From NCBI GenBank assembly GCA_964019425.1, contig OZ025789.1:930001-994000 (forward strand): 64,000 bases of DNA. Reading direction: 5' to 3'. Numbering within the stretch: position 1 is the stretch's first letter; every line of letters starts with the position of its first letter. The DNA comes from Flectonema sp. DT1601 (taxonomy: Eukaryota). Both the position numbers and the translations under genes were made by a program. A model generated the notes under the pieces. The model made no database searches and had not been told where the DNA came from. It worked only from the letters and a program-made list of their open reading frames with translations. Shown here in pieces: positions 17,281 through 51,546 of this stretch.

Positions 17281-20131
17281 TCACACTTTATAAAGACAAG
17301 TTCTAAGTGAGTATCCTCTCTGAGTTAATAATTTTCTCATTTTCGCGATGCAATCAGATTTCGTGAATAACATAAAACAGACAACGTAGTCAACGTCCTC
17401 GTGATCTCTGTACACCGACATCGTCATTTTTGAATTATGAGCATCAAGCTGTGTTGGTTGCCAGATGTGATTAGAAAAATGACCAGGATAGTCCCACAAA
17501 GCACCTATCTTATCACCGCATGGGTTTAAGACTTGCCAACAACGTCCAGTTGGTTTTCGACTGCATATCGACATGGGTGCTGCGAAATCAAACTCATTGT
17601 GAGATAGTCGATGGTATAAATAATCAAATGAATCAGACATAGCGATGTGTTCTAACAGCGCACCCTCGTTGTTTAAATCATAGATGGTGCAGTTTAGGAA
17701 TTTATGTGTCTTTTTACTGTTAGAGTTCGAAACGGGTACAATGAACCCTGATCTGCATTGGATGGTAGCGGACAGTACTGGTCCACAGTAAACATCTAGA
17801 GTTCTGCATGTCTTGTGTTCAATCATTGTAATTTGTTCTCTTGTTGCTGCGATGTCTGGTAAGATGTCATCTATACCTGTTGGTTGTATTATTTTATATA
17901 AAAAAGAAATTGGCTTTTATCTTAAATAACTATACAGAAAAACAGTAATATAACAACTGTGATGTGTTTTTTTGTTTGTGTCACGAAACCGACTTAAAAC
18001 TGATAAAGCTAAAGGAGGTTTACGTGTGCTGCCCAACATTCTTTTAATACTTGTTAAATGCAAAAAAGAACCATACTGTTCGTTTTCAAAAATAGAAGCA
18101 AACACATACCAATATCAGCTTTCTTACCTTCTTGTTTAGCAACAGTAACGAGAACAGATAACTCTTCAGCTGGTCTCATAGGATCTATCGATACTTTTCC
18201 AGTTTCATCAGTCGTGGTGCAAAAACATCGAATTAAGATGCGAAGAAATGATTTGAAATCAATGCATGATTCAGTTCTAACTCCAAGGTTTTGATCATTC
18301 TTACCAGACCCTGATGCACCTGATAATGGAGGTAACACCTGTTGTTGCATTACTTCTTGAAAAAATGGTTCATCACTCACTTGAGTACCATCAGCCATGT
18401 ATAGTTTTTCAACAATTCCATAATCAGTTTTAAACTTCCTCCATTTATCAAGAACTAAGAATCGAGTGTTTCTTCGATCTTTGTAACAAACTAACGATGA
18501 GAATAGTTTTTGTAATTTTGTGATGAGAGTGTCGTCGATGTACCAAACTGGACAGGTATCCCTAACAGTAAATAACTGACCAGGAACGGTCTCAGAATAT
18601 CTAACTCGATCATTACTAACATCAACTAAGAAGGTTGAGTACATTCCAATTTCTACGGTCCATAAATGAGTTTGAGTATCGTATCTGATTACAACATTTA
18701 TTTGTGAAGGTTCGACTGATGGAAGAGTCAGAGCCACTCTTTTCGGTTTCACAGTATGAGCTCGTAACGCAAACGGTGGTATTATCTTGTTTATGTCTGA
18801 GAATCTAACAAGAACGTCTCTCTTGGTACAGAAATTAGATCCATCGATAGTGACGTCGATGTCACCAGAGCCTGGAGATATGTATGGACGACAAGCAGCA
18901 TGTTCACTGTTATTTCTTAGTATCGGAACACCTTTTGGAACCCAGTCACAGTCTGATGATAATTCCCTTGAAAATATTTTTTGATAAAACGGAGAAAAAG
19001 ATCTAAACAAAGACTCAACTCTACTGGTAATAGTCGGTGACTCAACCATGTCAGTATGGACCACCATGGAAACCCTTAACATAACATCAATAAATGTCTG
19101 TTTATCAAGAAGAATATCCTGATAAGTCATCTCTCCTAAGCCTCCAGATTGAGATCCTCTCCGAGAAATATTAGCATAGGTACATTCTTGCATTTCAAGA
19201 GGTGTGTTTGGATTCACAATTATTTTTCCAAAACACGCTACTTGAAGAATTTTTGATATTTGAACAGAATTAATCAATTTTGGGTAAAGACCGAATTCTT
19301 TACAAAAATCAATGAACTCATCGACTTCGACATTCGCATCCAATACTTTTAAAACATCATAACTAAGTGTTTTATTGCCATGTTGATCCAATGATTTATA
19401 TCGTTGGAATATTCGTTCAATGGGAGCATCGTAGATGCAGAGTAGTCGATCAATGTCGAGGGATTGTAAAAGGTCATCACCAGGTTGACATCCATCATTT
19501 TGATTTCTTCTAATCGACTCGTCAACCCATTTGCTTATGTGTGTTTCAAATAATTCTTGTAGAGCATGTCGGTGTTTACCATCCAGATGCGGATGTTTTT
19601 GAAATGCTGTTTTTTTTTTTTTGTTGTTGAGTTTTTTTTAGTTTTTTTAAAATATTGGATATAATAACAAAAAAAAAAAAACCTACCAATATGAACCAAT
19701 ACTTTAGTAAAGCGAACGATGTCTAAGTTTCCTTCAGAATCAACAGACCAATCTACCAAAGTCATGTATCGGGATTGCTCTTTATCAGTTGTTATTAGCT
19801 TGCATTGTTTCGCCCAGTGTTGAAATAATTTTCTATCCATTTTCTTTTTTTCTAAATAATCACCATGATCCAAAGCATGTGAGAATAACACCATTATAAC
19901 CGAAAGCATTCCTTCCCTACCATCAGATAAGATTAGCTCAATGCTAGTTTTCTCCATGTCACCTTCTTTGTAAAGGTTATTTATCATTTCACTAATTAAT
20001 TTATTTGCGACTGAAGCAGCTGATTGCCTTCTAGCACCTCCTTCCTTTCGTACCCATGAAGCTGGAGATCCCATTCTTCGAGTACTGCTATTACGTCGCA
20101 CTGGGATACTCGCAGAGCTCATGCGACGCAT
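17281..20131 (-). CDS. Large multidomain protein with EF-hand/p25alpha-like helical modules and an IPT/TIG-like domain; introns 19607-19686 and 17877-18109
   Basis: Two GT-AG introns join three ORFs in frame (VHI|AFQKH; DI|GIDDILP). PYISPGSGDIDVTIDGSNF resembles IPT/TIG. Domain calls are tentative. Confidence 0.7.
17901..18066. repeat. Dispersed ~165-bp repeat, copy A (inside intron 17877-18109)
   Basis: Near-identical to 47354-47525 (gaaattggcttt...tcacgaaaccgacttaaaactga...aaaggaggtttacgtg...aatacttgttaaatgc). Confidence 0.9.
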
Positions 20132-20281
20132 TTTTTTAAATTTATTTTATCTGAAATTTAGTCATCGCTTTTAAGAAAGAAGGGGAAATAATTTTTTTTT
20201 TTCATCACTGAAGATGCGAATAATCGATGTGCAGGTTGGCACAGAAGTACCACCGCAATATTTTTATATAAGTGAGAATAA

Positions 20282-21148
20282 CTACGAAGTCCTAACTACG
20301 TCAGAAGTATAACAGAGCTTGATGTCGTGTTGCTCAAGCATTTGATGAATATCTGTCGCAGATGATAAGAATCCTCCTTTTCCGATTCCCTCTCCAGCAA
20401 AGTAGAATGGACGACTTGCATCAAACACAATATGAATACCACTCTTACCCATTTGATGAGCACAACAGGCTGTGTCAATAACTCCAAAATCGAATGGTAC
20501 ACCACAAACGAATATACGAGAACCCTCAGGTGCTCCCCAAAGTATTTCTTTGATAGGAACCTTACGAAGGATTGATCTGATGTCTGGATGAGCGTTAATA
20601 TCGTCGGATAGATTTGAGCATCTCAGTTCGAATGCTCCCGTCCAGTCAGTCATTGGTTTACTGGGATCAGCCATCGTTAGTCTCTGTAATGCAAACTGTG
20701 GAGCATACGGAATGGCACCACTTGATGAGATTTGTTCACAAAAACCTTTAAAACAGATGTGAACGTTGTTCTCTTTTCGTTCATGAGCTCGACGCATTGC
20801 CAATGACAACGCCTCTCCAATCTCATCACAGAAATACGAACCAGAAGTCCCTTGAACACAATGTCTTGGGAATGCTGCTCTCCTTCCAGTAAAAGAACAA
20901 TGACTAATAGGATGATAGGCCTTCACAGCAATGATCTTTGATCCTGTTTGAGAAGCATGGCCTATCAGTCTCGCTATTTCCGGAATAACAGCTTCACATT
21001 CAACAACCTCCATAGGTCCTCCTTCCATCATATCATTTTGCATATCCAGCACGATAAGCACGTCGTGGATTTTCATTTCTCGTTCGATCTTCTTTGCGGA
21101 GCTGCCCGCTTCCGCCAGCATTGATGCCCATTCGGTAAGGACCCGCAT
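20282..21148 (-). CDS. Nicotinamidase/isochorismatase-family homologue, probably catalytically inactive
   Basis: LDMQND, HPxxHxSF, FPRHCVQGT and FKG motifs of PncA present; the nucleophile region reads GVPFDFGV instead of GxATDYCV. Confidence 0.85.
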   Translation of the reverse strand: MRVLTEWASMLAEAGSSAKKIEREMKIHDVLIVLDMQNDMMEGGPMEVVECEAVIPEIARLIGHASQTGSKIIAVKAYHPISHCSFTGRRAAFPRHCVQGTSGSYFCDEIGEALSLAMRRAHERKENNVHICFKGFCEQISSSGAIPYAPQFALQRLTMADPSKPMTDWTGAFELRCSNLSDDINAHPDIRSILRKVPIKEILWGAPEGSRIFVCGVPFDFGVIDTACCAHQMGKSGIHIVFDASRPFYFAGEGIGKGGFLSSATDIHQMLEQHDIKLCYTSDVVRTS

Positions 21149-22083
21149 GGCATAAAACCTGATAAAGGAAAGTATAACATGATCTCATCACATAATAATT
21201 GTGGAATAGCTGCAGTCAGACAACTGCTAACGAACGACTACTCGAACACACACGATGCTCGTGGATACTGTCCTTGCTACCGTGTATCGAGTATTACTGT
21301 TTAATATAACAAAAGGATGACTATGAGTGAGGATAGTCATTCCTATTGTCACAAGTACGTTTTTAACTAATTCTACAGCGACACTGCAATGCAGGATAGT
21401 AGATCAGCTGAGGACGGAAGTTGATTATAACGAAAACGAATATTCCTCTTTAAAGTGTTTACAGACACTAACTGTGTTGTGTCACCAATTCCCACCCAAA
21501 AGATCGAAAGGTGGAGGGGGCAGCAATACGGAAAAAAAAAAAAAAAAACGGGGTGGATAATTGTAACATCGTAATAGAAGAAAATCCAAACCACCAAAAC
21601 ACAAAAACAGGAGGACGAAAACTTTGCTCTGCACCCCAACAGAAAACAAGATTCCACTCGCATAAAACAAAACGTATGATAACTTCAATGGGTACATCAC
21701 ACTAACGGCATTGGCACATCGCCTGCCTAACAGTAATGATTAGTTGGCCCATAAAAAGATTCTCAATCCCAAGAACACATCCAAAAGTATTATTTCATTA
21801 GATCCACAGAAAGACATGTTATGCAGCATTCAAAACAGAGCTCAACCCAATCACTCTCTAAAGGAGATCAGCGTTCACGTACGATGAGTGACTCTAATTG
21901 CTACCTCAAGTGTAATGTAGTAGTAGCGCACAGCAATCGATAAAAAGGATCTTTAAAAAACAAAAGAACTTATCATTTGGTAGAAGCCGATAAACAGGTA
22001 CCCCAATTACTTCTGTGAAGGTTTTGTTTTCATTAGAAACAAACAGGAACGTGACGTGCGAGTTTAGTATATTTTAACAATGT

Positions 22084-22911
22084 TTATAATTTTGCTTTTT
22101 TAGGAGCACCAAGTTGCCTTGACTTATCAGTAGCAGCAGTAACAGCTCTGATCACAGCATGACGTAGACCATGTTCTTCCAGAGCGCTTACTGCTTCAAT
22201 GGTAGTACCTCCAGGAGAGCAGACCTCGTCTTTTAGAACCATCGGGTGTTTTGAGGTACTCAGTTGCATCTTCGCCCCTCCTAGTACTGTTTGAGTTGCT
22301 AATTTAATTGCTGTAGCACGTGGTAATCCTGCTCTAACACCACCATCAGCTAGAGCTTCAATAAAAAGATAAACATATGCGATTCCTGAACCAGCAACAC
22401 CAGTTGCTGCGTCAAGAAGATCTTCACTTTTAAGGAACGTTGCGATTCCACAAGAGTTGAGTAGTTGTTCAGTGATGCGAATATCTTCTTCAGTGCAAGA
22501 AGCTGATGGTGTGAATGATGAGGCGGATTCACCAACTAGACAGGCGGTGTTTGGCATCACTCTCACCCAACGAATAGAACTGTTGCCGAATTCTGAAAGA
22601 CTTTGTAACTTTACTCCAGCAGCTATCGATATGACTAACTTATTAGAAAGTTCTGAATGAATCTCTCTAAGAACTGGTTGAATAACATTAGGCTTCAGAC
22701 ATATAACTGAGATGTCAGAAGCTCTCGCAGCCTCTAACGCACTGTCAGTGGCTCTCACTCCCAATTCCATCGCTCTTTCTCTTGCTGCTGGTAGAAGATC
22801 AGCTACGACGACGTCGTTCTTTGAGACGATTCCTTTTTCCAACATTCCTCCTAACATCGCACTTCCCATTGCCCCACCTCCAATGAATGAGATTTTCTTT
22901 TGAAGTGACAT
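22084..22911 (-). CDS. proC: Pyrroline-5-carboxylate reductase
   Basis: FIGGGAMG Rossmann motif, ISIAAG, RVMPNT, GSGIAY, EALADGGV, VCSPGGTTIEA. C-terminal -AKL is PTS1-like. Confidence 0.97.
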   Translation of the reverse strand: MSLQKKISFIGGGAMGSAMLGGMLEKGIVSKNDVVVADLLPAARERAMELGVRATDSALEAARASDISVICLKPNVIQPVLREIHSELSNKLVISIAAGVKLQSLSEFGNSSIRWVRVMPNTACLVGESASSFTPSASCTEEDIRITEQLLNSCGIATFLKSEDLLDAATGVAGSGIAYVYLFIEALADGGVRAGLPRATAIKLATQTVLGGAKMQLSTSKHPMVLKDEVCSPGGTTIEAVSALEEHGLRHAVIRAVTAATDKSRQLGAPKKAKL

Positions 22912-23267
22912 TGTTTGTAAGATTCTTATGCTGTGATAATGATTAAAATAATAAAGAAGATCGCGGTCATACTTATCTTCAGTTTCTTCATCTTCTGAAG
23001 CTGCGAAACAATTAGTTTATAAAAAAGAACGTAAAACCCAAACTCCATAATTGGACTCTATGAAATAATTAAAATAGCAACAAACTTTTATTTTTTTTCA
23101 ATGAAAAAAAAAAAAAAAAGATTTTTTTAAAAAATATATAATAAAACCCTAACGGTCAATTGACACAATAACAAAAATGTCTTCCTAGTCTACAGAAAAC
23201 AGATAACAGAATAAAAAAAAAAGATACAGGTAAAGTTGAACAGAAGCTACAAGGTGAGAACAACTAT

Positions 23268-23897: not shown

Positions 23898-25251
23898 TTT
23901 TTTTCTTTTTTTTTGTGTTCCCACCCTAGTTCTATGATGTAAGAGAATTTATCAAATTAAAAAAAAATCAAACCCACAACAACAACAACAACAACAACAA
24001 AAAAAAAAAAAAAACCATTCTCATTTTTTTTATTTTTTTTTAATTATTTTCAATTTTTTGGTTATTATTGTTATTCATTATTTGAATTGACTTTCTTAAA
24101 AAAAATAAAAAAATTTTCAAAAAAAAAAAAAAACCGAAACATGCTTGGCCAGTGAATCAAACAACTTATTTTTTGCGATATCATGGCGGACTCGAACTGA
24201 GATAGCTACCCTGGAAAAGGTTTTTTTTAAATAAAGGAACTTGTGGAGTTCGGAACACCAAGCAGAGATTAATATCGCTGAGTGGCCATCGAACAGCACC
24301 TGATCTCTTTAATTTTATTTTATTTTATTTTTTTTTATTTCTAATTCTGATTGAATTTCAAAAAAACGTGTATGAAAGGAAAGAAAACAACAACAACAAC
24401 AACACACAACAAGGGTTAGCTTAATAACTTTTTTTTTTTTTTTTTTTTTTTTTCTTAATTTTTTTTTTTTTTTTTTCTCTCTGTCCGTCCGCCACAAAAC
24501 CACAATATACTACAACGTCATCGGAGAGCCAATTGACCAGGCCAGGCAAAAAAAAAAAAAAACAACAACAACAAAAGGCAGATTTGAGCGACACAATACA
24601 AACAAGGATAGATATAAATTGTTGAAGCTCAATCATAACACGGAAAGATCGGATAGAGATTTAAAAAAAATAAAGCTTCACTATTACACACCATTACCCC
24701 TCTCTCTCCACGAATAGATAAGAAGAACACCTTTAAAAAAATATATATAAATATTGACTATTATTAACATACAGTTGTTAATCTTTATTTTTTTTTTTTT
24801 CAATATTTTTTTTTTTTTTTAAAAAGAGATGGCAAATGCTCTACTACACTCCCACTCAACACAGAAATCAACCCTTAAAAAGGTTTTTAAAACTACCCAG
24901 ATACCTTCACATCTGCAACGGGAAACACACATAATACTTAGAAATGTACGTCTTAAGAAAGACGATTAATTAATTAATCGAAGAGAGGAAATAGCATGGC
25001 GTGAAACTATAAAAAAAAAAGTCACAACAACGATCAGAGTAAACGCTTTCAATGAGTAATTGGGTAACTCAGCGACACCATGATTCCTTCATTTTTCAAA
25101 ACAGGAATTGACCAAACGAAGAAAACAAACGAAATAATAATAATAATTTCATTTTTTTTTTTTTTTCAATAATGTTATATAAATCTAACAATCAAAACAA
25201 GAAAAACCATAATAAACACAACTCAATTAACGATAAACCGCATCAAGGTAG

Positions 25252-28042
25252 TTATATTGAAGGAGGAGGATGCACACATATGTGAGACGCCTTTGAACTT
25301 CTAGACTTTACACATCCATGAATGGAGTGTAAATTGGGACAGTTCTCAACTAGATCATCCAAAGTATATTCGTCTATCAGTAAAGAACCGCAACCAGAGT
25401 TGTTAACGTGAAGCTGTTTTATTTATTTATTTTTTTTTTTTTTTTGTAATTGTTTGTTAGTATTACTCCGTGAAACTTAGTACCCATTAACAGGGTTGGC
25501 TCAACAAGAATAGTGTGGTTGAGGGAATTGAATGTTGACCAAACAGGTAGATATGCAGGGGAGGCCGCTCCTTGTTAGATCGAATTTCATCATTCCTCCC
25601 GATGCTAGAAAGTTCCTCAGTACTGATGATAATCATTGGTGTGAACTGACTAGGTTCCCAACGGGTCATTCAGCTCCAGAGATTACGCATACTCTAGTAG
25701 CAACCATCGATAGTTTTCATTGAAACTTGTTCGAAGAGCGATAAATAAAATCAACTGAGGCATTATTAGTCTGTTCGAACATTAGCGTGGACAATAACCT
25801 TCCAGAGTTGCTCTTTGGTCAGCTGCCTTCAAATAAGAGTCCCACAGGCAGTGGGGGGTTGTTCTTTCAAACTCAAAATATGATTTAAAATGGTTCTTAT
25901 TTCAAACTTCAACTTGGCTAATTGAAGTAGTTACTTTCAACTTTAACACCAAATGGACGACGCTGACCATTCCTTTTATTGATTGGCAGCTACATATATT
26001 AAGGCTAATTACACCTCTTTTTGACTTTAGTGAAATCTGAAGTTTTTTGAGTCAACCAACAGTAAACCATCACAGCTGTTGGGATGGATGACATCATTAC
26101 AAGGTTCTCAACTAATAGATGATTGATGACTTGGGATCAACAATAGGTCGTCGCGGTATGGGTTTGCGATACCTCACAAAACAAGTAAAGAGAGTAAACT
26201 CCGAAGAACAGAAAGAAAAAAAACAACAACAACACATACCACTGACAAGGTCAAATTCCTTATCAACATCAAAGGAGAGATGTGATCTAAAAACAGACTG
26301 AGAGTATGAAGACTTGTGAGATTTGCTATGGAGTGAGCGACAGATTCTCCGATTTTACCAGGCAAGTCCAACACCAAAACCCTTAAGTGAATACAACCAG
26401 TCAACGATGAAGCTAAATCCTCTTCACTCACAGGTATGTCACGAAGAGTTAACTCTTTCAAACCAAACAGATAAAAAGGAATGCTTTGCGCTAGAGAACA
26501 GCAATTTTCAAGTTGTAAGATCTCTATTGTGTCGATAGTCAGAAGGATAGTTTTTACTATGCTAGAAGTAACTAGATAGTCGTTAGTTAAGTTTAAGTAT
26601 CTCAGCATTGGTGGTTGTCTAACCTTCCTTACTATGGATACAAGCATTGATGGTGCTGACAGTGAGATCAAACGACTTGCTAAGACGTCAAGAAGATCTT
26701 GTGTTGTGATGTGAGATGTACCAAACAGTAACACACTACTCAGTGATGGTAATCTATTTAAAATAGAAATCCAGTCTAAGTCCGTCTGTGGTTGGATTGT
26801 GTCCGTATCCCAACAACCACAATCATTAATTTCAAGGTACCTTATCGAGTTACTTTTCAACTCACGCATTATGTCACAGGAGTCGTCTTCTAAGTCTACC
26901 AAAACTAGTTCCCTCAGAGAAGTGCAATAGTCGCAAATCGCTCTGTACGATCCTTTTGGAAAAAAACTCAAACTAGTAAAACAAAGAGTTACCAAATTTT
27001 CAGGAAATGAATAACTTCGAAGAGACTCAACAGTTAGTTTGAATTCTGTTCGTGTTGCGAACATCCTTCTCCCATCTAATCTCAATGTTTTTAAATTCTT
27101 TGGTAAATGCGAAAGCAATGCTGGTGTTGCAGCCTCACCACAAGCAAGCAACAACTCCGACAAAGATTCCAACTTGGGTAAAACATCCAATAATTCCTGA
27201 GTGAAGTCAGTATGAGGATCGCTGTCAATAAGTACCATTGATAGTACTTTGAGAGTTTCTGAACAATTTTTTAAACTTGAAATTAATGTTTCTCCCTCAT
27301 ATCGACTTAAACCAGAAATCCACATGTCGAGGTCTTCCAAACGAGTAATATTAATTTGATCTAACAAAGACCTTCGAATATCACTGTAGCCGTAAACTGA
27401 TAATCGTTTGCATCGATTTCGAAGAGGAGGGATATCCGTATCCGCATCAATTTTAAATTCTTTTAAATTATCTAACTTCGCAATGACATCTGCGGGTACC
27501 ACAGGACCCCATATACATTCTAAGTTAGGAAATTGCGTATCCCAAGGGATGATTTTTAAATCGTTAGTATCAATGTTGTTTGGTAATCCGAGATGCTTCA
27601 GTTGAGGTAAAGATGGAATATTCTCTATGAAACCCTTTACTGATATGTTAACACAGCCACGTAGGTCTAAGTGATACAAGTTTGGAAGATTTTTTAATTG
27701 CGGAAGTGATTCTTCAGTGATCGACGTCCATCTTAAATCCAATTTCTCAACCTTATTCCCAACAATACTCTGCAGAGATTGCACACCTTCTATTCCTTGT
27801 AGATTTAATTCCTTCATTTGTGTTGTTAATTTGCTTGATACGATTTCCTTATTCATTAGTTTTTCAAGTAGTTTTCCCGGAATCGAACTGGCGATATCGC
27901 CAACAGAGACTTTTTTATCGCCAATCCATTCTTTTAACTTGTGTATACAGGCACCCTTTAGACCGAAGAATCCACCTGCCTGGCACTGTCTCTTATAAAA
28001 ATCAAAGGCGGTGGTTCCCAGAAATGTTTCTTGGCAGTCCAT
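25252..28042 (-). CDS. Leucine-rich repeat protein (FBXL/RNI-like repeats); intron 25414-26239
   Basis: Many LxxLxLxxC repeats; ATG at 28042 after acceptor ttatttcatactctag. Donor GTG|GTATGT joined to acceptor aaataaaacag gives in-frame last exon LHVNNSGCG...LVENCPNLHSIHGC...PPPSI*. Confidence 0.8.
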
Positions 28043-28247
28043 GTCCGTACCTAGAGTATGAAATAACAAATTGATAATTCACGCAAAGGTATTCCCTTTC
28101 TCAATAGGATGCATCTGTTTTTTTACTGTTTAAATTGAAGTAAAAAGTACGTTAAAATACAACCGAAGAAACAACATATTGAGAGCAGAATTGCTGCGCT
28201 TGTTCTTGTTTTTTACTTTGGTTTTAATTTTTATTTTTAATAATTGT

Positions 28248-28278
<31 letters not shown>

Positions 28279-29027
28279 CCAATCTTCAAATTCTCTTGAT
28301 AAAACCGAACAAGAGAAAAGAAAAGAGCATAATCGTGCATAATCGCGCATAAGACAATGTTGGGAACTCTTTTTTCCTTTTTTTTTTTTTTTTTGCTCTA
28401 TCTTTTTCCCCACCCCATTTCGCCTACCTGTATCAAATCACAGCTGAAGAAGAATTTTTATGTTCTTTTCCACTGCTGTTTTTTCAGATCACACTAATAA
28501 AGTGGGATACAGCAATTTTTCTAAAGTGAAGGCAAGTATGTATGAACAGGGTTAGAGACTTGTTGGCAGATTATCAAACAAAAAAAGACTGCAATAAAAA
28601 CATAATTACCACCTGTGGTATCAATCTATTCTAGATTTCAACAGTGATATTCCGCAATAAGAGCCAGTGGAGGGTAATGACCCATCACACTTCTCTTGTC
28701 TTCCTCCAACAACGGACGTGATTATAGTTCTTTCCTTTTTCTTTCTTTCTTTCTTTTTTTTTTTTTTTTTTTTTTGATTATTTCTCCTCCTCCTTATGAC
28801 ACTTTGAAAAGTACACTGAGGCGTGCAGTCCTCCGCCTCGCCGTTGAAGCAGTCGCTTCTACGGTAAAAGGAGAAGCGGTGCCCTGCCAGTATGACAACA
28901 CATTTTTGAGCAAGGAACCAGCGCGTGTTTGGGGTCTAATTAACAGTTTCTCTTCTCTTTGTTTCTTTTTTTTTTTTTTTTTTTTTCGTTCTTGATTTTC
29001 TTTCATTAAATAATAACAGAGACGTAG

Positions 29028-30737
29028 CTATGCTGGAGTGAGAGGTGCCTCAGCTGCTGGAGATTGTGGTGCTTCTTGAGAGGCCACAGCCTTCGTAGGA
29101 GTAGTAGAATCAATGTCCATACTGCCTTCCTTCTCTTTAAGAGCAGGGTTAACCCATATTTTATTTCCTTTGTGAAGCACTGAGGCAGCTAGAGGTGCAT
29201 TTACTTTTTTCGCAAGCGCAGCTTCCTGAGCAACCTTTTGATCTTCTGTTAGTAATGAAGGGTTCTGCCACACCATGTTACCAGTGTGAGCAGGAGCTGC
29301 CTTCTTCCCACTCTTGTGTCCACCCTTTACCCCTGCACCTCTTCCTCTACCCGGAGCAACACCAGGTGCAGTGTACCTGTTGGTTGGTTGGTTGGTTATA
29401 ATTAGTTGAAGTTGTTTTACTCTTTACGATTCTCTGAATAATATAAAAGAAAAAGACCGATATAGTGATACAAGAATGTTACTTGCAAGAGCTGGAAGTG
29501 GAGCGAGCAGGTGAAGGTCTCAACCAACTGAGGTCATCGGACGGGCAGGAGGACTCCAGAATGGAAGTAGACGATGGCCCAAACCAACGGACTGAAGGGC
29601 AGGGCTTGACTCTGCTCCAAGGTAAGGTGACAACTTTAGGAGCGTGAGTGGATCCAGGTAAGGATGTTTGGAGACTCTGGAAGCCTGGCACTGGTGCAGG
29701 CAAAATTTGAGGCAGACGCCATCATAATTATATTGGAAATGCAAATAAAAGCAAACGCAAGATAATACATACACCATGTTACCACTTGACCACTGCTTCC
29801 AAGGTGGGATTGATGCTGCTGCAGTTGTTGGTGCGGTCACACCCTTACCTCCTTTGCCACCTTTTCCTGCCAACCACCAAGGGGCTGGTGGCTCTTCAGC
29901 AGTAGCTGGTTTCGGTGTGTTGTAGTGTGAGATGTTTGGTATGTCAGAATCTTCTATTTTATTTAATGTAATTGTGAACTTCGTTTGACTGTCGTCAGTG
30001 AGTGCTGGTTGAGTGAGAAGCGATCTGTCAACAGCTGGGACTACGTTCAGATGAACAGCACCTTCTGGAAGATCAAAACCGGCACCTTTACTATCTGTTA
30101 TAGTGAATCTGGTTGAGGCTGAAGAATCTTGTTTTTTAGTTTTTTTTTCATCCTCTTTGCGACGTCTGCGACGGTCGCGGTCACCTCTACGTTCTCTGTC
30201 ACGATCTCTGTCTTTATCGCGGTCATCTTTTCTTTCCCGACGGCGTTCTTCACGGTCTCGGTCTCGTTTTGTATTATCGCGAGTTGCCCATTGTAATGCG
30301 CTTCTGAAGCTTTTTAAATTTGGTTGTTCTCGGACTTCTCCAGCCAGGTCGTCTGCGGAGACGCCTCCCGAGCGATCGAAGTCTCTTGGTCTGTCTACTT
30401 CCATATCGTCATCAGTTGAGGCTTCTTTCCTCTTTGAGAAGGCGGAGTGAGTTCGAGCTGGATTCCTATCCGCAAGCATCTGCCATAGCCAATCAACAAA
30501 ACGTGGAGCTTCGTCAAATAAAAACACTTTTAGATCTTCTATGACTTGTGGCTTTTGTTTTGCATTACACACAATAACTTTAATATACTCTGGTAGGATG
30601 GACGAGATTGTTTCTACAGATCCAGCATGTGAATATTCATCTTGTAATTTTCTCTTTATCTCTTCCTGAATTTGATTAGCCAGTTCTGAATCAGCCTGCA
30701 ATATCAACGGTGGTCCATCTTCCGTAGGCATAGCCAT
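29028..30737 (-). CDS. PWI-domain RNA-processing protein with R/D-rich and RG/KG-rich regions; intron 29377-29772
   Basis: N-terminal LPEYIKVIVCNAKQKPQVIEDLKVFLFDEAPRFVDWLW resembles the Nab2/ZC3H14/RBM26-type PWI domain. Splicing gives SSGNMV|YTAPGVAPGRGRG, in frame with ORF 29028-29276. Confidence 0.8.
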
Positions 30738-30904
30738 ATATTATAATTATAAATAGGTTTGTCAATTACCCAATTCCTGTGTGCTGGTTGCAGCGCTTGA
30801 GTCCCAGAGTCGAGAAGTCCCAGTGGTCGGCAATTCAATGCGTGTAGCAAAAAAAAAAAAAAAACTTTAAATTTTTGACAACCGTTTTTTTCTTATTTTC
30901 TTCT

Positions 30905-31390
30905 GGCCCGGGCTTTTTTTTTTTTTTTTTTTTTTAAACAGTTGTCACTGGTAATTGGTTTTTTTTTTTTTTTTTTTTAATATCGCCTCGGGTCTTATCA
31001 TATCATCGCCCCACCCCCCAGCCAGCAAAAAAATTTAGGAAAGCCTTGACACATGTTTTGATTTTTTTTTGGCCCGGGCTTTTTTTTTTTTTTTTTTTTA
31101 AACAAGTGTCAATGGTTGGCTTTTTTTTTTTTTTTTTTTTTAATAGCGCCTCGGGTCTTCGCATGTCAGCCTCTCCCACCCCCCAACACCGATTGCCTCA
31201 AAACAAATTGAGGAACTAAAACAAATCAGCAAAGCCTCTGCTGTTGTTTTCACTCGACAGTCTCCGACTAAATAATGCTAAATTTCTTTTGGCCCGGGTT
31301 TTTTTTTTTTTTTTTTTTTTAGCATTTGCCAATACGATTGGCTTTTTTTTTTTTTTTTTTTTTTTAAATGCCTCGGGTCTTTTGCATGTC
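30905..31390. repeat. Three degenerate tandem units: GGCCCGGG-poly(T)-spacer-TTGG-poly(T)-GCCTCGGGTCTT
   Basis: Units start at 30905, 31071 and 31291 with the same motif order. Confidence 0.9.
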
Positions 31391-31893
31391 ATCAAGCCAT
31401 CAAAATCCTACAGCTATTTCCAAACGTCAGTGAAAAAAAACAAAAAAAAAACAAGAAAAAATTTTGTTACTTTATCACGTCTTGTATACCACCACTCTTC
31501 GATTAGGAACAGAAAAGGGAATAAAAGGAAAGCGTCCTCAACATCCATCCACGATAGCAGAGAGGGACTTCTCAACAAGGGTGCGGAAGATTAGGAGGCA
31601 TCCGCTGGAAAATAAAGGGGGGGAGGTACTTAGTGCTATATTACAACAATAAATCACATTGCGATCAAGAACTCAGGACCATCTTTTACTTGCTGTCAAA
31701 AAACAAAAAGCAACAAAACTTATTCAGGAAAAAAAAAAAAGAAAATACTATTTAACGATCGGAATCCAAATCAGAATTTTCTAAATAAAAATTTCACATC
31801 ACAGTCGGTTAGGTCCTTCTGTTTTAATTAATTAATACGCCTCTCACTAGCATTGTCTTGAGTAGAAACAAATCCAGATCTACTCACAAAATG

Positions 31894-32551
31894 TTATTTC
31901 TTTGCATTCTTCGCACTCGCAGTGGCATTCGAATCGGATTCGAATTGTTCTTTAATTGCTTTTACTTTTGCTAGCAGTTGTCTTACCTTTGGATTCTTAT
32001 CAATCACCTCTGCTGCTTTGCTAGGTTCTGTTTTTTTTTATTTTTTGTTTATAAAGAGATACAGATCAACTAAACTAAAGGTGCGGTTCATTAGCAACTT
32101 ACTCAAACATACCTCTTGCGATTGACTGAAAGTGTGAAGCGGTGTCCATGTCTTGGAGATCGTCAATCAGAGATGGGTCTTTTCGAACGTACGGAAGCAT
32201 CGCTTTTATTTCTTCTTCTTTGAATCCAGGAGTACCTCTCAGCCGATTTACAAGTTTTTTATCTTCATAATGAGCATATTGCTTTGAATCTGGAACCGGG
32301 TCTTCCGGTTCGGGTTCGGGTTCTGGTTCATTGACGAGAACAAATCCTGTTTCATCAAGTTTTTTTTGCATTTTTACTTCTTGTTTTGCCGCATGGTGCA
32401 TAACTCTCGCTCTAGCTGCTTCTTTTTTTTCAGCAGCCGTTGGAGGAATGTCTACTAAAACGAAGCCGGTTTCATCTGCACCTCCCGATATTGCTCTTTT
32501 ACTTATGGAGTGCCATAATCTGGTACTTGAGATTCGGAGTCTCGGGTACAT
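31894..32551 (-). CDS. Putative mitochondrial protein with STI1/DP-like C-terminus; intron 32028-32112
   Basis: Arg/Ser-rich presequence-like N-terminus; duplicated DETGFVLV. Spliced C-terminus KDPSLIDDLQD...FQSIAR|EPSKAAEVIDKNPKVRQLLAKV resembles STI1 motifs. Confidence 0.65.
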
Positions 32552-32718: not shown

Positions 32719-34233
32719 TTATTCAAAACATTTCATAGTCCAGATTACTTGCTTGCTAAGAGGGAGTGGTTCTTCGTGCAGAGGGAGGCCTGATGATCGT
32801 CGCAATCGACTTTTTGTTTTAGTTTGATTGAGTTGTCGTATCTGAGGTACAGTAGCGGATATCAATTGCGTTGATGGTTCATAAGAATCGCAATATGATT
32901 TGGGAGATTGCTGTTCTTGATCATCAGTTTCCGTTGGTGTTGATATCGGAAGCCGTACCCTGGAAACTCCATGAGCTATCCATTCAAATCTCCCACATAT
33001 CCAACTCCCCTCACCTCCATAGATCGATTGAAAGTCTTGACAAAACGATCCCAACGCTTGCAATTGAGGTAGCGTTTCAACAGAAGTCGCAACTTGAAAT
33101 TTTTTCAAACAGATCGGACATAATAACGATTTTGAAGAATCGTTAACATCCTCAATACCATCCTCATTCATTAAACAAATAAAAACATAACAATGTTTCA
33201 ACCCAAGTGAATGCAGCAATAAGTGCGCAGCATAACGACATACTCGTTTAGATAACCACATGTACCAAAGATCACCACCACTGGAATATCCATTTTGAGA
33301 AAAGTGTCTCGCAGTAGCAGGCTCATCGTCGTTAGCATCTGACTGTCCTGTCTCTTTTAAGAAACTTGGCATTAATCTTTTACCATATAATGTTCTGGGG
33401 TATCCAAAAAATGAAGGTTCGAGTCTGGCGAATGACAACACAGCAACGCCATTTTCTGATGAACTGCCAACGCAGTGATTGACTGCAGGATCCTTGTAGA
33501 GATCAACGTGAGTGATTCCGATGGTACAAAACGCATCAGCAGGAGCCTTTAACTGAATCCATCTTAAAAGGTCAGGAGCGTACTTCTGAATCCTCCTTCC
33601 CGGTGGATTGTTTTCATTAATCCGAGTACGTATAACAGATTGTGGATATTGAGAGAAGGCTGGGTTTACACTTTGTGGCTGTTGTTGTTATTCTTATTTT
33701 ATTACACGTTTTTACAAATATATCGATGGGAAAAAAACAAAAAAAAAAGAAGAAAAAAAAAAACGGACCTTTTTTTTGACCGGCAACGGCTGTGGATCCA
33801 ACAGTATGACAGGAATTCCATGAAAGAAAGCACCGAGATATCTCCGTAGGATATCAAGCTGTGGAGGAATGATTGAAGGTACTGCTTCTGGAGTAGCGTC
33901 TTGTCTTCCTTTTCGGAAAGAGTTTGTTCGGAGTTGTGTTGCTGGAGAACTGCTGAAGCCGTGGACCCAACATTGTCCCAGAGGCATGATATAGATAATA
34001 TTACGACCGTTTAGGGAGGCACTTTGTGGTCGTTTTTGTTTGAAGTTGGAAACAGTTTGAACTTCACCTGAAGAAGGACCATATGCTCTGAAGAACTCCG
34101 GATCCCAATGAAAGACTCGCTGCTCTTCTATCGGAGCCGTTTCATCGACGGCATCCCAACACATGGCTTCTGCTGCTCCTGCTGGTGCTGGAACTTCATT
34201 CCTCGGCTCCTCCGTCCTACGAGGGAAGCCCAT
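32719..34233 (-). CDS. Archaemetzincin (peptidase M54) homologue lacking the catalytic Glu; intron 33679-33768
   Basis: IYIMPLG, PADAFCTIGITHVDLY, SFAR and HLLLHSLGLKHC...CLMN...LCPICLKK motifs. The intron joins ORFs 33712-34245 and 32719-33441 in frame. Confidence 0.85.
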
Positions 34234-37284: not shown

Positions 37285-37453
37285 CTTTCTTAACCTGAAA
37301 AAACTGAATTAAATAATGTAACCAAATTTATCATTATAGATTGTTATGAATAGGAAATTTAACAAAAAAAAAAAAAAAAAAAAAAAGGATTTCAATAGTA
37401 ACAAATACCTTCCTGTGTAAATAGTTAGTATGAGAAGGTATAAGGATAAATAA

Positions 37454-37545
37454 TCAGTCAGTCAGTCAGTCAGTCAGTCAGTCAGTCAGTCAGTCAGTCA
37501 GTCAGTCAGTCAGTCAGTCAGTCAGTCAGTCAGTCAGTCAGTCAG
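37454..37545. repeat. (TCAG)n tetranucleotide microsatellite, about 23 units
   Basis: Directly visible; overlaps the stop codon of the gene at 37538. Confidence 0.97.
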
Positions 37546-42039: not shown

Positions 42040-43171
42040 TATGCAGTGCTCTGGGGATCTGGGAGGGACCTGGAAAAGATGTTATTATAATCAGTTCTTC
42101 TTATAAACAGATGATCACTATCACTACTAATTGTAATGGTCGTAAAGTATAACCTGATACTGGAGGAGGGGGTGAAAAAATAATTTTTATCCAAATCAGT
42201 ACATCATCTTAAACCAAAAGTACTCAAACAGACCAAAACTCAAATCATCAGCGACCGCTGATGCTTATAATTGCCTCTGAGATGGGAAGGGGAGGGCAAT
42301 CGGATCACTCTTACTCGAAATCACAACCCAAAAAGAGTAAGGAACTAAGTAGTGGATGTGATACGTAAAATATTGCTTTCAGACAGTAGTTCCACTACAG
42401 GAGGAGAATAAAGAAAGTAAAAAACTCAATACTACTTGTAGAAAAAGGAAACCAGGAAATGCTATTCCCAATTATTCAAAACGCTAATTACTAACCCAGG
42501 TAGAAAAAACAAAAAGAGCAAAAAAAAAAAGCAAACTAATGCCCTCCCAAACAAAACAAACAGATTCTCTCCCCAGAGTGTAACGCCTACCTTGTTAGAA
42601 TAAAGGAAGACAGAACAATTGCAATGAAAGACTCATATTATGATCAATAATGTCTTTTCTACTATTGGTTTAAACACTACTAATAATTGTGTGGTGGTAT
42701 TAATTGCAAGTTTTTTTCATTCATAGCTAAAGGCTGATTCATTATTAAAGTCTGTTTTTGTTGTTGTTTTTTTGTTTTTGGTTTTTTCCCCGTTCTCCTT
42801 TTTTTTTTTTCCAGTCCTACGTATTAGAAGGAGAAAATCAAAACTGAGTAAATTATAAACAACGAAGGGGGAAAAAAAAAGAAAGAAAAAGAGAGAAAAG
42901 CAAGAAACACAGCAGGGTGCCTACTGAGTTTCTCATCCCAGTCAAGGGTGGCATGACAATCTCTCTTTGTTTGTGGTGTTTTTGTGCTTTTTTTTGTTTT
43001 TTATTTTTTTTTTTTTTTATCTCACATGGAAGAATATTATAAAAGAAAAAACCAATCTCCCATTAAAAGCAACAAAAAAAATGAAAAAAAAAAAAAAAAA
43101 TTTAAATTACAGAAAATCTACAACGGAAAGGAATACACTCTACCACTAATAACAGGCTGATATGCCCTTTG

Positions 43172-43783: not shown

Positions 43784-44014
43784 TTATATTATTATGGGGA
43801 GGGTGACTGAAATGTTAGATATTTATAAAAGGATGATGGGGAAAGAAAACAAAACAAATGCCGAGTATTCATCTGCTGTCATTTTCTGTTGATTTTTGTG
43901 TATTTGAGTCACCTGCAGAAATAGTAATCACCAAGTCTGTTGCACAAATTACTCCAAAAAAAAAACAAGAATTTAATTAGCATTCTTAGACAGTGCCACC
44001 AATCTGCTTTGCTA

Positions 44015-44548: not shown

Positions 44549-44930
44549 GTGGGCATCTAGCTCTGAAAAATGAACGAATTAGTGAACCTATTTTTGATTG
44601 AGGGCAGCAACACAAATGAACTCACTTTTATTGGGGTCATCTCTTCCTGTAGTATAAACAATGAGAACATTAAAATACGTAATAAAAAGAGCTTTACGCT
44701 ATTCTACACCCCAACCTTGACTTCCAAGGCAGGGTTTACAGATATTCTAAATTAGATAACAAAAAGTAAAAGTACACATCTCTGGCAAGTTTAGTACGTA
44801 AAGAAAGAAAGGTTCCGTAGAGTTAACACAAATCTATATCCGCAATATGCAGATTGGTTCTGTTTATAATAATAAACGTTCCGGGGAAAAACGGAAATCT
44901 TACATTGAGACAAAAGAAAAAGTCGCAATG

Positions 44931-46238: not shown

Positions 46239-47353
46239 TGCTGTTGAAACAAATGGTTTGAGGAAGTTATCAATTTCAGTATAAATTTAACACCAGAGTG
46301 TAATGGTCATCCTCTCTCATCAACATCATGTGTAAGGCTGGGTTAATACATGGAGTTAAGGAACAGCAATGAAAAAATAAACAATAGAAATAGAATACTA
46401 CATAATCTAATTAGAAAAAAAAGCTACAATTATTTTGATAAGAATCTATGAGGCGCTTGCAGTAGGGGTACGTTGTGTGTATTCTAATGAAAAAAAAAAA
46501 GGAAAGCAACAAAAAAAAAGAAGAAGAAAAAAAGTCCCCTACTTTCTGTGATACAATTCGCAGCTTAAACCAATTTTTTTTTTTTTTGCCTTACGGCGGT
46601 TTTTTTTTGAAGGGCAAAACTTTGACAATGTAGAAACAGTTACAACTTTTAGGTATTAAAAACAAAATTAATATCAAAAGTACTTGACTGAAAAAAATAT
46701 ATTTGAGGGAAGAACAAAAAAAAAAAAAAGCACATCCGAAATAAAATCACAATGTGAGTTTTTTTTTTTTTCTTTGCATTCCAAAGCAGCTGTCATCACA
46801 TATGTATGAGAAGACGCTATGAAATACCCTTTTTTAACGACATATCCCGAAACTATAATCTACAGATAGAGACTGCCACAAGAATATTATGGTGTTGTTA
46901 TTGTTGTTGTTGTTTTTTTTCTTTCCTGTTGTTTTTTTCATTAAGAGAATACGAAAAAAAAAGAAGAACAGAGGGAGAAATAAAAAGAAAAAAATAATCT
47001 TCCCTCTTAAGACTAGACAAGTTAGTGAGTGAATCCAACAGACCACCACCGAATATCGGTTTGGTTGACTCTCAAATAGAGATCTTCGAGTCATCCCCAA
47101 TAACTGCAGTAAGAGTTTTAAACGCAATAATCCTCAAAAAGATAGAGAGTTTCTACTATGAAGGAACAAAAAAAAAGCCATTCCAATGCAAGGAACAGAA
47201 AGGAATTAGAATAAGCGACTTTGAGCCTTCGAAAAAAAGGAGTTGAGGCTAAAGTTGAAATAAGGAGTCTTTTCAATGTTCCGCACTTTCTTATTTTATG
47301 TTTTAACATAAACAGCATAAGTGCTAATAAAAAAGAAGTTTTGGAAGAAGAAA

Positions 47354-47525
47354 AAAAAGAAATTGGCTTTATCTTAAAAACTATACAGAAAAATAGTAAT
47401 ATAACAACTGTGATGTTTTTTTGTTTGTGTCACGAAACCGACTTAAAACTGACAAAAGCTAAAGGAGGTTTACGTGCTGCCAACATTCTTTTTTCGTTCT
47501 TACAATACTTGTTAAATGCAAAAAA
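47354..47525. repeat. Dispersed ~165-bp repeat, copy B (intergenic)
   Basis: Matches 17901-18066 with a few substitutions and indels. Confidence 0.9.
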
Positions 47526-48024
47526 AAAAAAAGAGGGAAAAAATGGTTTAAGGTTTTTGTTTTATGAGTGTATACACAATAAATTCCAAAAAAAAAAAAA
47601 AAAAAGTTTAATTTTCAAAATGGAAAAAAATCATTATCACTCCAACAGCACCATAATTTTTTTGTTTTTGTTTTTTTTACATATTATTTTTTTTTTTTTT
47701 TGCTTCTGATAATTATTTTCACTTACTTCGGACAAAAGATTAAAAGGGAACGTGGACTAGAGTTGTCTACTTTGTTGGACAAGAGAAGGAAGGGGTAGGT
47801 GCAAATAACTACCTACAAGTAACAACAAATTTAACAAGATCACAAAGGCATGGCAAATAATATGTGAAACATTAAAGCATCACGGTGAGACTGTTCGAAG
47901 CCTTGGCATCAACAACGATTGAACAACGACAAATAAAAAAGAGAAAAAAAAAAAGAAAAGAAAACAAATCTAAGGACGGAGAGAGAAAAGGGAAATTATA
48001 ATGACACATAACTTAGTACAACTA

Positions 48025-48055
<31 letters not shown>

Positions 48056-48149
48056 TTTAATAACAAAAGAGAATGTTGCCCACCTATTAATTTCAATTCT
48101 CATGAAGTGGTCCACAATATTTATTATTGCATAAGCAGTATTTGTAATT

Positions 48150-48655
48150 CCATAGTGGCGTCACTAATTCTAGTCGGTTATCACGGTTTTTAACGAAGGA
48201 AGAGTTCTCCTAGACCGGGTAGTGCAAGATCGCTACGTCTGGTGCGTGCACTGCGGGGGTGGCACTGCATTAATACAACATTTGGATAGCAGCTTTCCCG
48301 TAGGATTGAAGACTTTCACAAACGTGCACCAATACAGAACTTTGCCCTCGTGCACATACGTATCCTACACGGTCTGCAGAACCAGGGCCTGAGCAAGCTC
48401 ACGGCACCCAGCATGTAGGCGCGTCGAATACGACCAGACAACTTAATGATAGGACTGATGAGGAGAATCATGAAGTTTTGAACGGATCTCGTACTCTTAC
48501 CACTCACCGGTTTCAGGGACTTTTAACCCTCTTTTCAAAGTTCTTTGCATCTTTCCATCACTGTACTTGTTCGCTATCGGTCTCCGGGAGATATTTAGCC
48601 TTAGCAGAGGGATACCTGCCAATTAGCTCAGCATTCCCAAACTGAGCGACTCTTG
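48150..48655 (-). pseudogene. Isolated fragment of cytoplasmic LSU (28S) rRNA: conserved core between D1 and D2 (about 48500-48655) plus probable D2 sequence
   Basis: Minus strand reads GAGTCGCTCAGTTTGGGAATGC...GCTAAATA...GAGACCGATAGCGAACAAGTACAGTGATGGAAAGATGCAAAGAACTTTGAAAAGAG, the universal LSU motif. No other rDNA nearby; the lower boundary is estimated from GC content. Confidence 0.9.
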
Positions 48656-48826
48656 CTGACCAGAGAACCAATTTATACATAGGCAACAAATTCTCACTTA
48701 AAAAAAAGACAAGTCTCACTCGATGGCGTGAAAAATATAAAAGTAATAATAAAAAAAAAAATTACATCTTTTTTCTTTTTTTCTTAGAAACAAACAAGAC
48801 GGCGAGCAACAATTTTTTTGTGCACA

Positions 48827-48886
48827 AAACTGTGAACCGACTTACACCGATGAAGCCAAAGGAGGCTTGCGTGCTGCCTTGTTAAA
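48827..48886. repeat. Diverged partial copy C of the dispersed repeat
   Basis: aaactgtgaaccgactta...gccaaaggaggcttgcgtgctgccttgttaaa matches the core of copies A and B. Confidence 0.7.
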
Positions 48887-49186
48887 AGAAAAAGAAAAAA
48901 TAAAAATGAAAAAAAGAAATCAGCCGGCACGCTGATTTAAACCCGTGAGACAAATATTTTAGCTAACGGTTGTGTTAGTTTTTAACTTTACGTTTTTTTT
49001 TTTTTATGTTTTTTTTTTAACTCGTACTGGGGAAATTGTAGAAATATTAAAAAAAATTCAAAAAAAAAAAAAAAAAGAGAAGAAATTTCAAAAAAAAAAA
49101 AAAAAAAACATTTTTTAAATAAATAAAACAATAATGCCATTCGTGTTCACGTTGTTTTGTTTTATTTTCAGAAACCGAACCTCTTC

Positions 49187-51546
49187 CTAAATATGCCTCG
49201 AGAGAATCTCCATCCGGTCGGCAGGCATCGCGAATGATGGCCGTTGCTGTTTTTTTGTTACTTTTTTTTTTTTTTTTTTTTAAAATTGATAAAACATCAA
49301 ACAAAACAAAAACAAAAAAAACAAACCGATCTCGGAGTTGTCCTACTCGGCCGACCAGGGAAATCAGTCGGAGAAAGAAGAGCTGTATTTGCTCGTTCCC
49401 TTCGATGTGGTTTAATAGAACTAGTAGGAGCCTGTTCAAGTTGACCAGATTTGAATTCATTTTCTAAACTAACAAGTGCAGCACTGAGGTCAGCATCACG
49501 TATTCTACGAGTTGGAGTTTTTGCTCCATCTCTGTTTGATTTTGGTGGTACAAGATCACGTAGTTCAGAATCCAAACCATACTCTGCACTTGCTCGACGC
49601 TTTTTTCCAGATGATGATCGACGACGAGGTGGTTTCTTAGCATCAACCACCGAGGATCTACGAGAACTTCTCCTCGATGATGGAGCAGAATGACTAACAG
49701 GAAGAGTACCAGAAGATCTTCTTCTCCCCGACAAGTTGCTAACCATTGAGTTGACCCTCTCTCTTGGTTGTAATTTATCAAATCCTGGAATGGGTTTTAT
49801 GTGTGTTTGGTTAACAATAGTTCCCATTTCAATATTTTCAGTTTCCGGATAATTATTTGATTTTTGTACTTCAGGTAACTTATTAACTACGTCTTTATGT
49901 GTTGGTGTCACCCTCTGTGATGGTGGTTGAGATGAATTTGGTATCGATCCAACAGGTTCTATTTGAATAACATTGTGAGAAACTCTTTCATCAGAACTCC
50001 CTTGAAGTAGAGTTGATAGTAGTTTTGGTTCATTATTACAGTCGTTTGTCGTCTTCGGTGTCTTTGTCACATAACAAATAGCAGCTGCCATAAACACACA
50101 TAAAAATGCACATCCCACAGCCACTCCAATAATAGTTTCTGTAGGTAATTGACTATCTTTTGATCCAGAATTCATAACCTCACAGTAGTCACCGTACCAG
50201 TTTGGTTGGCAGCTGCAGATGCAGCCTCCGTCAATAATGGTAGCACTGACTGCGTGATTAGTACAATTATCTACTTTTGTACAAACAAGACCACCATTTG
50301 GAGTACTAAGACAGCTTCCCTTTAAACAAACAGTGTTGTGGTTTGGAATAGATTTACACCTACAGAAACCATCACTAGCAAGACTGGATTGTGAATCACA
50401 AGACTGATGAAGAAGCGGAATGATATCACACTTCGCAGTAGTTGCAGCACTGAGTCTCTCGCATATCGAAGACGGGGCTCCTGGACATGCAGTTCCTTCT
50501 GCTACAGACTTAACTGTTTTTGATTCTCCTGCATAGCAGTTTGATGACTTCACTTGATACTCCATGGCTTTACCTTTACACTCAGATGGCATGTATTGTT
50601 CAGGTTGACTTACTTTCTTACAATATGTTGCTGCGCTGACACATAAATCAGCCTCTTCACAAGTGAGGTGAGAATAAGATGTGAATTCACTAGTTAGTTG
50701 GTGTTCATCCCAAGGATGACCACCAACACAGCACGTTGGTGATGTTGAGTTTCCGCAGGTGTTTGTGACGGTACCTCGTCGAATGCATGAGCATGACTCT
50801 GTTGAGCACTTAGTGTTGATTTCACTTGTAATTATAGGATCAGTTTGAGTTCTTTGGTATTCCCAACCACAGTCTACACTTCCCTCAGGGATGACGGCAT
50901 GGGCGGCACTTAAGTCTCTACAAATGTCATTCTGATCACAGGTATTGTTGTCCTTATCGACTGTAACTTTAGTACTGCAGGAGTCAACAACTTTTCCAAC
51001 TTGTTTTTTAACACAATTCCACAAGGTGTCACAGGTTGCAAGTCCCTTTGTATACTTAACCCAAGCTTTAATATCACAAGGATTGTTACTGCAGCGTTCT
51101 ATTTGATCACAGGATGCCTGAGAATATTTTAGTACTTCTGGACGGTCAACTAATTTTGAGTTATCTTCAAAAAGAGTATCTGGTGAAGTAGAAGACTTAC
51201 ACAGTCCTGTTGATGCATCATACGTTGCTGGACTACCAGCACAGATACAAACTTCAAGAGAGCATTTGTCTGCTTCTGCTCTAAGTTCTGCAGGGTCGGG
51301 TGTCCATGATGACGGTGCCAGTGTTAAGCTAGACATACACCTTGACATTAATGGTTCACAACCCTCTGCGAAATTAATACTTAATTCATTAGCACCCCTC
51401 GAGTTACGTTGCTGTCCTCTTTGCAGTACCATACTCCTGAATAACTCTTCTAGTACGTCTGCGTTACCAGCACTTGTAACAATGCATAGCCAAGCAAGCA
51501 TCAGTATCTGAAGCAGTGCAGTCGGCATGTTGGTTGAGTTGTTCAT
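49187..51546 (-). CDS. Cys-rich type I membrane protein with a membrane-proximal EGF-like domain; intron 49247-49326
   Basis: Signal peptide (MPTALLQILMLAWLCIVTSA), many Cys, EGF signature CICSCQPNWYGDYCE, TM IIGVAVGCAFLCVFMAAAICYV, Arg/Ser-rich tail; spliced end PRS|QRPSF...RHI*. Confidence 0.8.

Follow-up and report, generated by a model that had tools for sequence, protein, structure and literature searches.

We analysed the introns and splice-site sequences of a 64,000-nt window of the Flectonema sp. DT1601 genome (contig OZ025789.1, assembly GCA_964019425.1, positions 930,001 to 994,000; coordinates below are those of the window). The DNA is at the 38% GC level and holds 28 gene models, all 28 on the minus strand. 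For the P5CR gene, which is intron-free and complete relative to its homologs, the top matches are EukProt transcripts (79, 61 and 56%), followed by Diplonema papillatum (52%). A second gene matches only a transcript labelled 'Sspe', which we take to stand for Sulcionema specki, and D. papillatum DIPPA_09325. Judged by protein similarity, the source organism is therefore a diplonemid. Clustered genes of D. papillatum are described as co-transcribed, with a spliced leader joined at their 5' UTR (untranslated region) and introns that are mostly GT-AG (PMC10161547). Polycistronic, intron-rich organisms must choose at each AG between leader addition and exon joining, and a leader placed at an internal acceptor would split a gene in two.

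To collect introns, we applied an A/C-rich filter, read through positions 9001 to 64000 of the minus strand and checked for frame breaks. The collection comprises 12 introns of 67-826 nt (median 82 nt), all on the minus strand (Table 1), and all intron statistics below refer to these 12 introns of one window, three of which lie in one gene. Borders are GT..CAG in every case, the donor is GTATG in nine, and the donor bases +4..+6 read TGT, CGT, GGT or TGC. The five intervals quoted in a first-pass annotation of the window are all recovered as minus-strand GT...CAG introns. Homologs support six of the 12 junctions: those of the three kinase-gene introns and of introns 19607, 17877 and 33679 (named by their lower coordinate). 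In the kinase gene, which encodes a PX-PH-kinase protein, the three junctions align without gaps to the transcript-derived protein P0121 (444/597 identical). Retention of intron 33679 gives an in-frame stop; with the intron removed, the protein can be aligned to P0126 and P0127, although small gaps occur at the junction or close to it. The other six introns, including the quoted 49247, for which alternative donors are possible, and 25414, are placed solely by the reading frame. When 15 exon translations were scanned against Pfam, no match spanned a junction outside the kinase domain.

By their borders (12/12 GT..CAG) and by the restoration of protein sequence (6/12 homolog matches), these introns, known from DNA alone, fit the U2-type GT-AG class of Diplonemidae. 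They resemble the canonical introns of that family in their GT-AG borders, (G)/GTATG donor, CAG acceptor, A in place of the expected pyrimidine tract, rarity of the YTRAY motif and low pairing of the 9-nt ends (PMC12621601); here YTRAY lies within the last 50 nt in only 3/12. They differ from those of Diplonema japonicum in length, with a median of 82 nt (n=12) versus 41 nt (PMC12621601). The hexamer GTATGT occurs 19 times on the sense strand, eight times as a listed donor, six times in coding and five times in intergenic DNA.

Table 1. Introns, an intronic inverted repeat and representative putative leader acceptors in the window
Feature	Coordinates	Strand	Sequence characteristics	Support
Intron, 80 nt	19607..19686	minus	donor GTAGGT, U13 5' arm, A-rich acceptor; fold z -2.47	junction gap-free vs transcript-derived P0123
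Perfect 17-bp inverted repeat in intron 19607..19686	arms 19666-19682 + 19609-19625	minus		
Intron, 233 nt	17877..18109	minus	GTATGT, A-rich acceptor, no predicted end-bridging	junction aligns to D. papillatum DIPPA_09325, P0124
Intron, 90 nt, Peptidase_M54 gene (Pfam)	33679..33768	minus	GTCCGT, U 0.90 and zero G in +7..+26	homologs (see text)
Intron, 80 nt	49247..49326	minus	GTTTGT, U/G-rich 5' arm, A20 in 3' arm, ~18 bridging pairs predicted	reading frame only
Intron, 826 nt	25414..26239	minus	GTATGT, 5' arm U-rich, 3' arm with A16, 0 pairs predicted to bridge the ends in context	reading frame only
Intron, 67 nt, kinase-gene intron 1	61762..61828	minus	A-rich acceptor, no U-rich 5' arm, ~1 bridging pair	gap-free junction vs P0121
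Intron, 77 nt, kinase-gene intron 2	61598..61674	minus	(AAAC)n acceptor tract	homolog-supported
Intron, 69 nt, kinase-gene intron 3	61433..61501	minus		homolog-supported
Intron, 85 nt	32028..32112	minus	GTATGT, acceptor A 0.90, 5' U 0.35, no bridging in context	reading frame only
Intron, 396 nt	29377..29772	minus	GTATGT, (AACC)n acceptor tract, 10 upstream pyrimidine-rich AGs skipped	reading frame only
Intron, 198 nt	15722..15919	minus	GTATGT, 10-bp perfect stem, ~17 bridging pairs predicted	reading frame only
Intron, 71 nt	12853..12923	minus	GTATGC, A/C-rich acceptor	reading frame only
Pyrimidine-rich gene-start YAG, putative spliced-leader acceptor	22931..22953	minus	19 nt before P5CR ATG	rule-based
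U-rich gene-start YAG, putative spliced-leader acceptor	37295..37317	minus	10 nt before ATG	rule-based

The introns end in A-rich sequence. A content at positions -23..-4 is 0.55-0.90 in all 12, none has a pyrimidine tract at the acceptor, and the A tracts far exceed those of intergenic windows (0/100000 draws). The 5' arms are more variable: U at +7..+26 spans 0.35-0.90, with a strongly U-rich arm in only four introns, and G content is 0.00-0.30. Mean 5' U is 0.54 versus 0.38 in intergenic DNA (p 7e-4), and six of the 12 arms fall short of the 75th percentile of intergenic DNA. The first-pass annotation had described T/G-rich 5' arms complementary to A/C-rich 3' arms. Its A-rich 3' tract proved general, and a strongly U-rich 5' arm is confined to 4/12; the G/C share of the complementarity finds no correlate, 5' G being low and not co-varying with 3' C (rho -0.29 and -0.43). 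The four main introns that it quoted are the U-richest four of the 12 (U 0.75-0.90 at +7..+26; A 0.70-0.85 at -23..-4), so that it described the extreme third of the set. It had itself remarked that the pattern is weaker in 61762-61828, as is indeed the case.

The composition of the cis acceptors separates them from the putative leader acceptors of the same DNA. For the latter we took the YAG closest upstream of each ATG, with no filter on composition, in the 28 genes (two start codons were set by hand). These gene-start YAGs have a mean pyrimidine content of 0.67 (28 sites). After removal of three tandem paralogs, leaving 25 genes, the cis acceptors (A 0.55-0.90, n=12) and the gene-start YAGs (A 0.10-0.45) show zero overlap (p 1e-6), and the six homolog-supported cis acceptors alone (A 0.65-0.85) still differ from the gene-start YAGs (p 2e-4). 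An A content of at least 0.55 is found in only 5/85 YAGs lying at most 120 nt from an ATG. The acceptor used is the most A-rich AG nearby in 10/12 introns and the second in 2/12, and the four long introns skip 10, 6, 6 and 2 pyrimidine-rich AGs. With a pyrimidine tract and AG shortly 5' of the ATG, in a one-strand cluster, the gene starts have the sequence expected of spliced-leader acceptors. In trypanosomes, trans-splicing is reported to be impaired when purines are inserted into the tract (PMC9639853).

It is possible, though in our view doubtful, that there is no special code here: the A tract would stem from a relaxed acceptor signal that drifted in this species, whose genome is rich in homopolymers, and, as the classical model has it, the upstream donor alone would set cis or trans. 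In the 19 kb of intergenic DNA, runs of at least 8 do occur 68 times for T and 57 times for A, cis tracts are described as varying among diplonemid species (PMC12621601), and leaders are reported often to join cis acceptors in Ciona and Schistosoma (PMC11155486, PMC5832876). Drift sits poorly, however, with A tracts that are present at every cis acceptor and avoided at gene-start YAGs of the same DNA, and with the skipping of pyrimidine-rich AGs within the long introns.

The 5' U tract is related to the donor. Three donors depart from GTATG (GTTTGT, GTCCGT and GTAGGT), and their introns hold the three highest 5' U values (exact 1/220; 1/15 for homolog-supported introns only). Over the whole set, 5' U rises with the mismatch of the donor (rho 0.72, p 0.008, n=12). 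The sequence pattern of TIA-1/Nam8-type donor enhancers, a U tract downstream of the donor and inverse to donor strength, is thus found among these 12 introns. The 2009 survey of such enhancers places the tract at most ~20 nt from the donor, reports the inverse relation between donor strength and downstream pyrimidine tract in most metazoans, and lists no clear homolog in its two protozoa (PMC2766253).

The first-pass annotation had instead proposed possible hairpin-defined splicing; in the strong form of the idea, pairing of the intron ends would stand in for recognition of the 3' splice site by proteins. The absence of an acceptor pyrimidine tract from all introns and their average U-to-A polarity agree with this idea, but the comparison of native and mismatched halves, the computational half of the test that the annotation had set, does not. 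In none of five settings do own arm pairs do better than mismatched ones (p 0.35-0.85). Among the 8 short introns, the native forms likewise gain nothing over half-and-half chimeras (energy p 0.95, bridging p 0.38), and 9+9-nt terminal pairing is 0.30 for own and 0.29 for mismatched ends. Against dinucleotide shuffles, whole-intron folds have z values of -1.3 to +0.8 in 11/12 introns; only intron 19607 stands out (z -2.47, p 0.015 uncorrected). Among the 12 introns, 5' U does not co-vary with 3' A (rho -0.04). The U-richest arm (33679) lacks any G that could pair with 3' C, and its own partner ranks 4th to 9th of 12 as an isolated duplex. The complementarity is compositional and not partner-specific, except for two stems (a perfect one of 17 bp in 19607-19686 and one of 10 bp in 15722-15919). 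The 17-bp stem sets 13 U opposite 13 A, and partner permutation attains 17 bp in 8% of draws.

Folding of the introns with 60-nt exon flanks at 37 C divides the set, and the same split is seen at 20 C. Five introns, including all three with weak donors, have 8.5-18 expected bridging pairs, and seven, including three homolog-supported ones, have 0-3.4 (0 in the 826-nt intron). Long-range fold predictions are the least reliable, which here concerns the four long introns. With at most 3.4 bridging pairs in 7/12 introns, pairing cannot define introns in general. Hairpin definition as a general rule is largely refuted computationally, and we hold it to be very improbable.

Neither of the two precedents invoked for hairpins describes these introns. 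Fish (AC)m-(GT)n structured introns share with them low-complexity complementary end arms, spliceosomal borders and the lack of a pyrimidine tract (Lin et al. 2016, PMC4691745). The fish introns have the opposite polarity, with AC at the 5' and GT at the 3' end, and carry dinucleotide repeats with G-C pairs where the introns here have U/A arms; they are described as about one third more stable than shuffles, with function and U2AF2 independence shown (PMC4691745), whereas 11/12 here equal their shuffles. AC and GT hexamers within 40 nt of the 5' and 3' ends are found in 0/12 introns in either polarity, and 1/12 beats shuffles at p<0.05; fish-type repeats were rejected. Euglenid non-conventional and intermediate introns and hemistasiid non-canonical introns are likewise euglenozoan, and end pairing has been proposed for them (PMC3935182, PMC12621601). 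They lack GT-AG borders and have stable, often GC-rich, partner-specific stems, unlike the consensus borders and weak generic pairing seen here (PMC3935182, PMC12621601). The non-conventional introns of euglenids carry CA/TG at +4,+5/-7,-6 (PMC3935182), a combination present in none of our 12 GT-AG introns. Euglenid-type borders were rejected (12/12 GT..CAG), as were partner-specific stems as a rule (own pairing equal to mismatched).

We give even chances to a reading in which the A-rich tract (..AAACAG) that ends these introns in place of a pyrimidine tract acts as a linear cis-acceptor signal, opposed to the pyrimidine-rich predicted leader sites, while a U tract props weak donors and the complementarity of the two is incidental. 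In such a scheme GTATGT-type donors would be read by U1. Where a donor departs from GTATG, the U tract just downstream would aid U1 recruitment, as TIA-1/Nam8-type proteins do elsewhere. By analogy, the A tract would be poor for pyrimidine-tract-dependent leader addition and would be used only by a spliceosome committed at the upstream donor. U and A tracts in one short intron would be complementary by composition, so that predicted hairpins would mostly be a by-product. The roles assigned to the two tracts are modelled on trypanosome trans-splicing and TIA-1/Nam8 biology. The annotation had also suggested that end-pairing shields cis acceptors from spliced-leader attack; a need for shielding fits the data, and A-rich sequence is a likelier means of it than end-pairing.

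Several points weigh against this reading. The sample is 12 introns, three of them from one gene, and the gene-start acceptors are rule-picked and putative. Depletion of pyrimidine-rich YAGs within introns is not significant (8/39 vs 110/314, p 0.07). The six frame-only introns were first spotted by the A/C-rich filter, so that their A-richness and acceptor ranking are partly circular. A composition-blind intron search yielded many chance joins and neither shows nor excludes cis introns with pyrimidine acceptors. In other diplonemids the cis tracts are described as C-rich and U2AF1/2 as retained (PMC12621601); a code based on A may thus be a local one. Three further observations touch the supposed incidental nature of the pairing. 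In the 10 introns of at most 250 nt there is more bridging than in length-matched windows drawn at random from intergenic DNA (Stouffer p 8e-4). In the 8 short introns, native 5' arms do better at bridging than arms taken at random from intergenic DNA (p 0.019). Long U runs, finally, go together with long A runs, in 3/4 versus 0/8 introns and in 0/24 intergenic windows. For the last of these p is 0.018 at a threshold chosen post hoc and 0.067-0.55 at four others, and the rank correlation of U-run with A-run length is 0.36 (p 0.26, 12 introns).

These three observations would be accounted for if hairpins helped a subclass of introns: the U tract of weak-donor introns would zip generically onto the A tract, join the splice sites and hide the acceptor, and the remaining introns would be linear. 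Since every U tract can pair with every A tract, generic zipping escapes the mismatched-halves test, and the link between U tract and donor fits this proposal as well, since the same three weak-donor introns are among the five with predicted bridging. The perfect 17-bp stem of intron 19607 also speaks for it. On the other side, the stems of the short introns are weak (-0.06 to -0.15 kcal/mol per nt), fold energy is no better than in intergenic windows (p 0.85), neither U with A nor G with C co-varies between the arms, and a best stem of 17 bp arises in 8% of partner permutations. Homopolymer lengths in assemblies, moreover, can be inaccurate. We regard hairpin help in a subclass as unlikely; folding predicts generic U:A zipping in 5/12 introns, which is compatible with a helper role in a subclass but not with a defining one. 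A reading that joins both ideas appears to us quite unlikely: the same polycistronic pre-mRNA would carry two 3' splice-site codes that exclude each other, a pyrimidine tract where the leader is added and, for cis-splicing, a poly(A/C) tract that is recognised without U2AF65, and the U tract of weak-donor introns would zip onto the A tract and so deliver donor to acceptor. If true for a subclass, the hairpin idea would connect canonical introns with those introns of euglenids and hemistasiids that depend on a stem; the evidence at present is weak.

An A-rich intron end is already known from Diplonema japonicum, where A is the main base of the polypyrimidine tract ('PPT'), as it is weakly in two other species, with U2AF1/2 present; terminal pairing is low in the canonical-intron species (Thakur et al. 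2025, PMC12621601). That study tests 9-nt ends only, and its main text, as far as we found, holds no comparison of cis with leader acceptors (PMC12621601). We likewise found no description in the literature of a non-overlapping purine/pyrimidine split between cis and leader acceptors in diplonemids, or of the link between U tract and donor strength, although the supplements of PMC10161547 and PMC12621601 may describe acceptor logos or a cis/trans contrast. In Schistosoma mansoni and Ciona, too, U is more abundant at leader acceptors than at cis acceptors, but the two kinds differ only by degree and have sites in common (PMC5832876, PMC11155486), whereas here the sets are disjoint and the cis class is purine-rich. 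In the animals studied so far the difference between leader and cis sites is graded. If true, the split between A tract and pyrimidine tract would be a simple answer to the choice between leader and exon, and would account for the unexplained A-rich tract of D. japonicum. The A-tract signal would also aid gene calling, as the database protein for one gene here misses both introns.

That protein, P0122 (18057-19391), begins within exon 2 and runs on across the 18109 donor, and both introns of the gene are missed; together with P0125 (32722-33372) it represents unspliced fragments of two intron-bearing genes. Possible UTR introns, each with a donor-like GT followed by an A-rich acceptor, lie in intergenic DNA of the minus strand at 42752-42820 (with no U-rich 5' arm), 28115-28427 and 24300-24772, and were kept outside all counts. 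The introns show no mutual similarity beyond low complexity, and a shared mobile origin was rejected. About 170 nt inside intron 17877-18109 (17900-18070) recur intergenically at 47353-47528 with 88% identity, as a dispersed repeat. When a metagenome was scanned with the alignment of the kinase, 2 loci emerged from 525 pattern matches, a distant kinase that lacks introns and a spurious, GC-rich match, neither of them usable.

Elsewhere in the window, a tRNA-Leu(CAA) gene lies on the plus strand at 63450-63533, against the direction of the gene cluster. A two-gene unit of ~3.99 kb is tandemly duplicated at 1656-9135, most blocks being 93-97% identical, and 54280-57974 holds a pair of near-identical tandem genes at a spacing of 2234 nt, presumably serine-carboxypeptidase-like by their motif. 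Upstream of a gene with a weak PWI-domain match, 30895-31393 consists of a degenerate tandem unit of ~165-220 nt with long sense-strand A runs. A 37-nt element is common to intergenic 48619-48655 and 63245-63281 (97% identity), and a (TGAC)n microsatellite at 37454-37545 begins at a stop codon. At 14963-15262 a 12-nt coding repeat gives a QPQT-type tail behind a predicted transmembrane segment.

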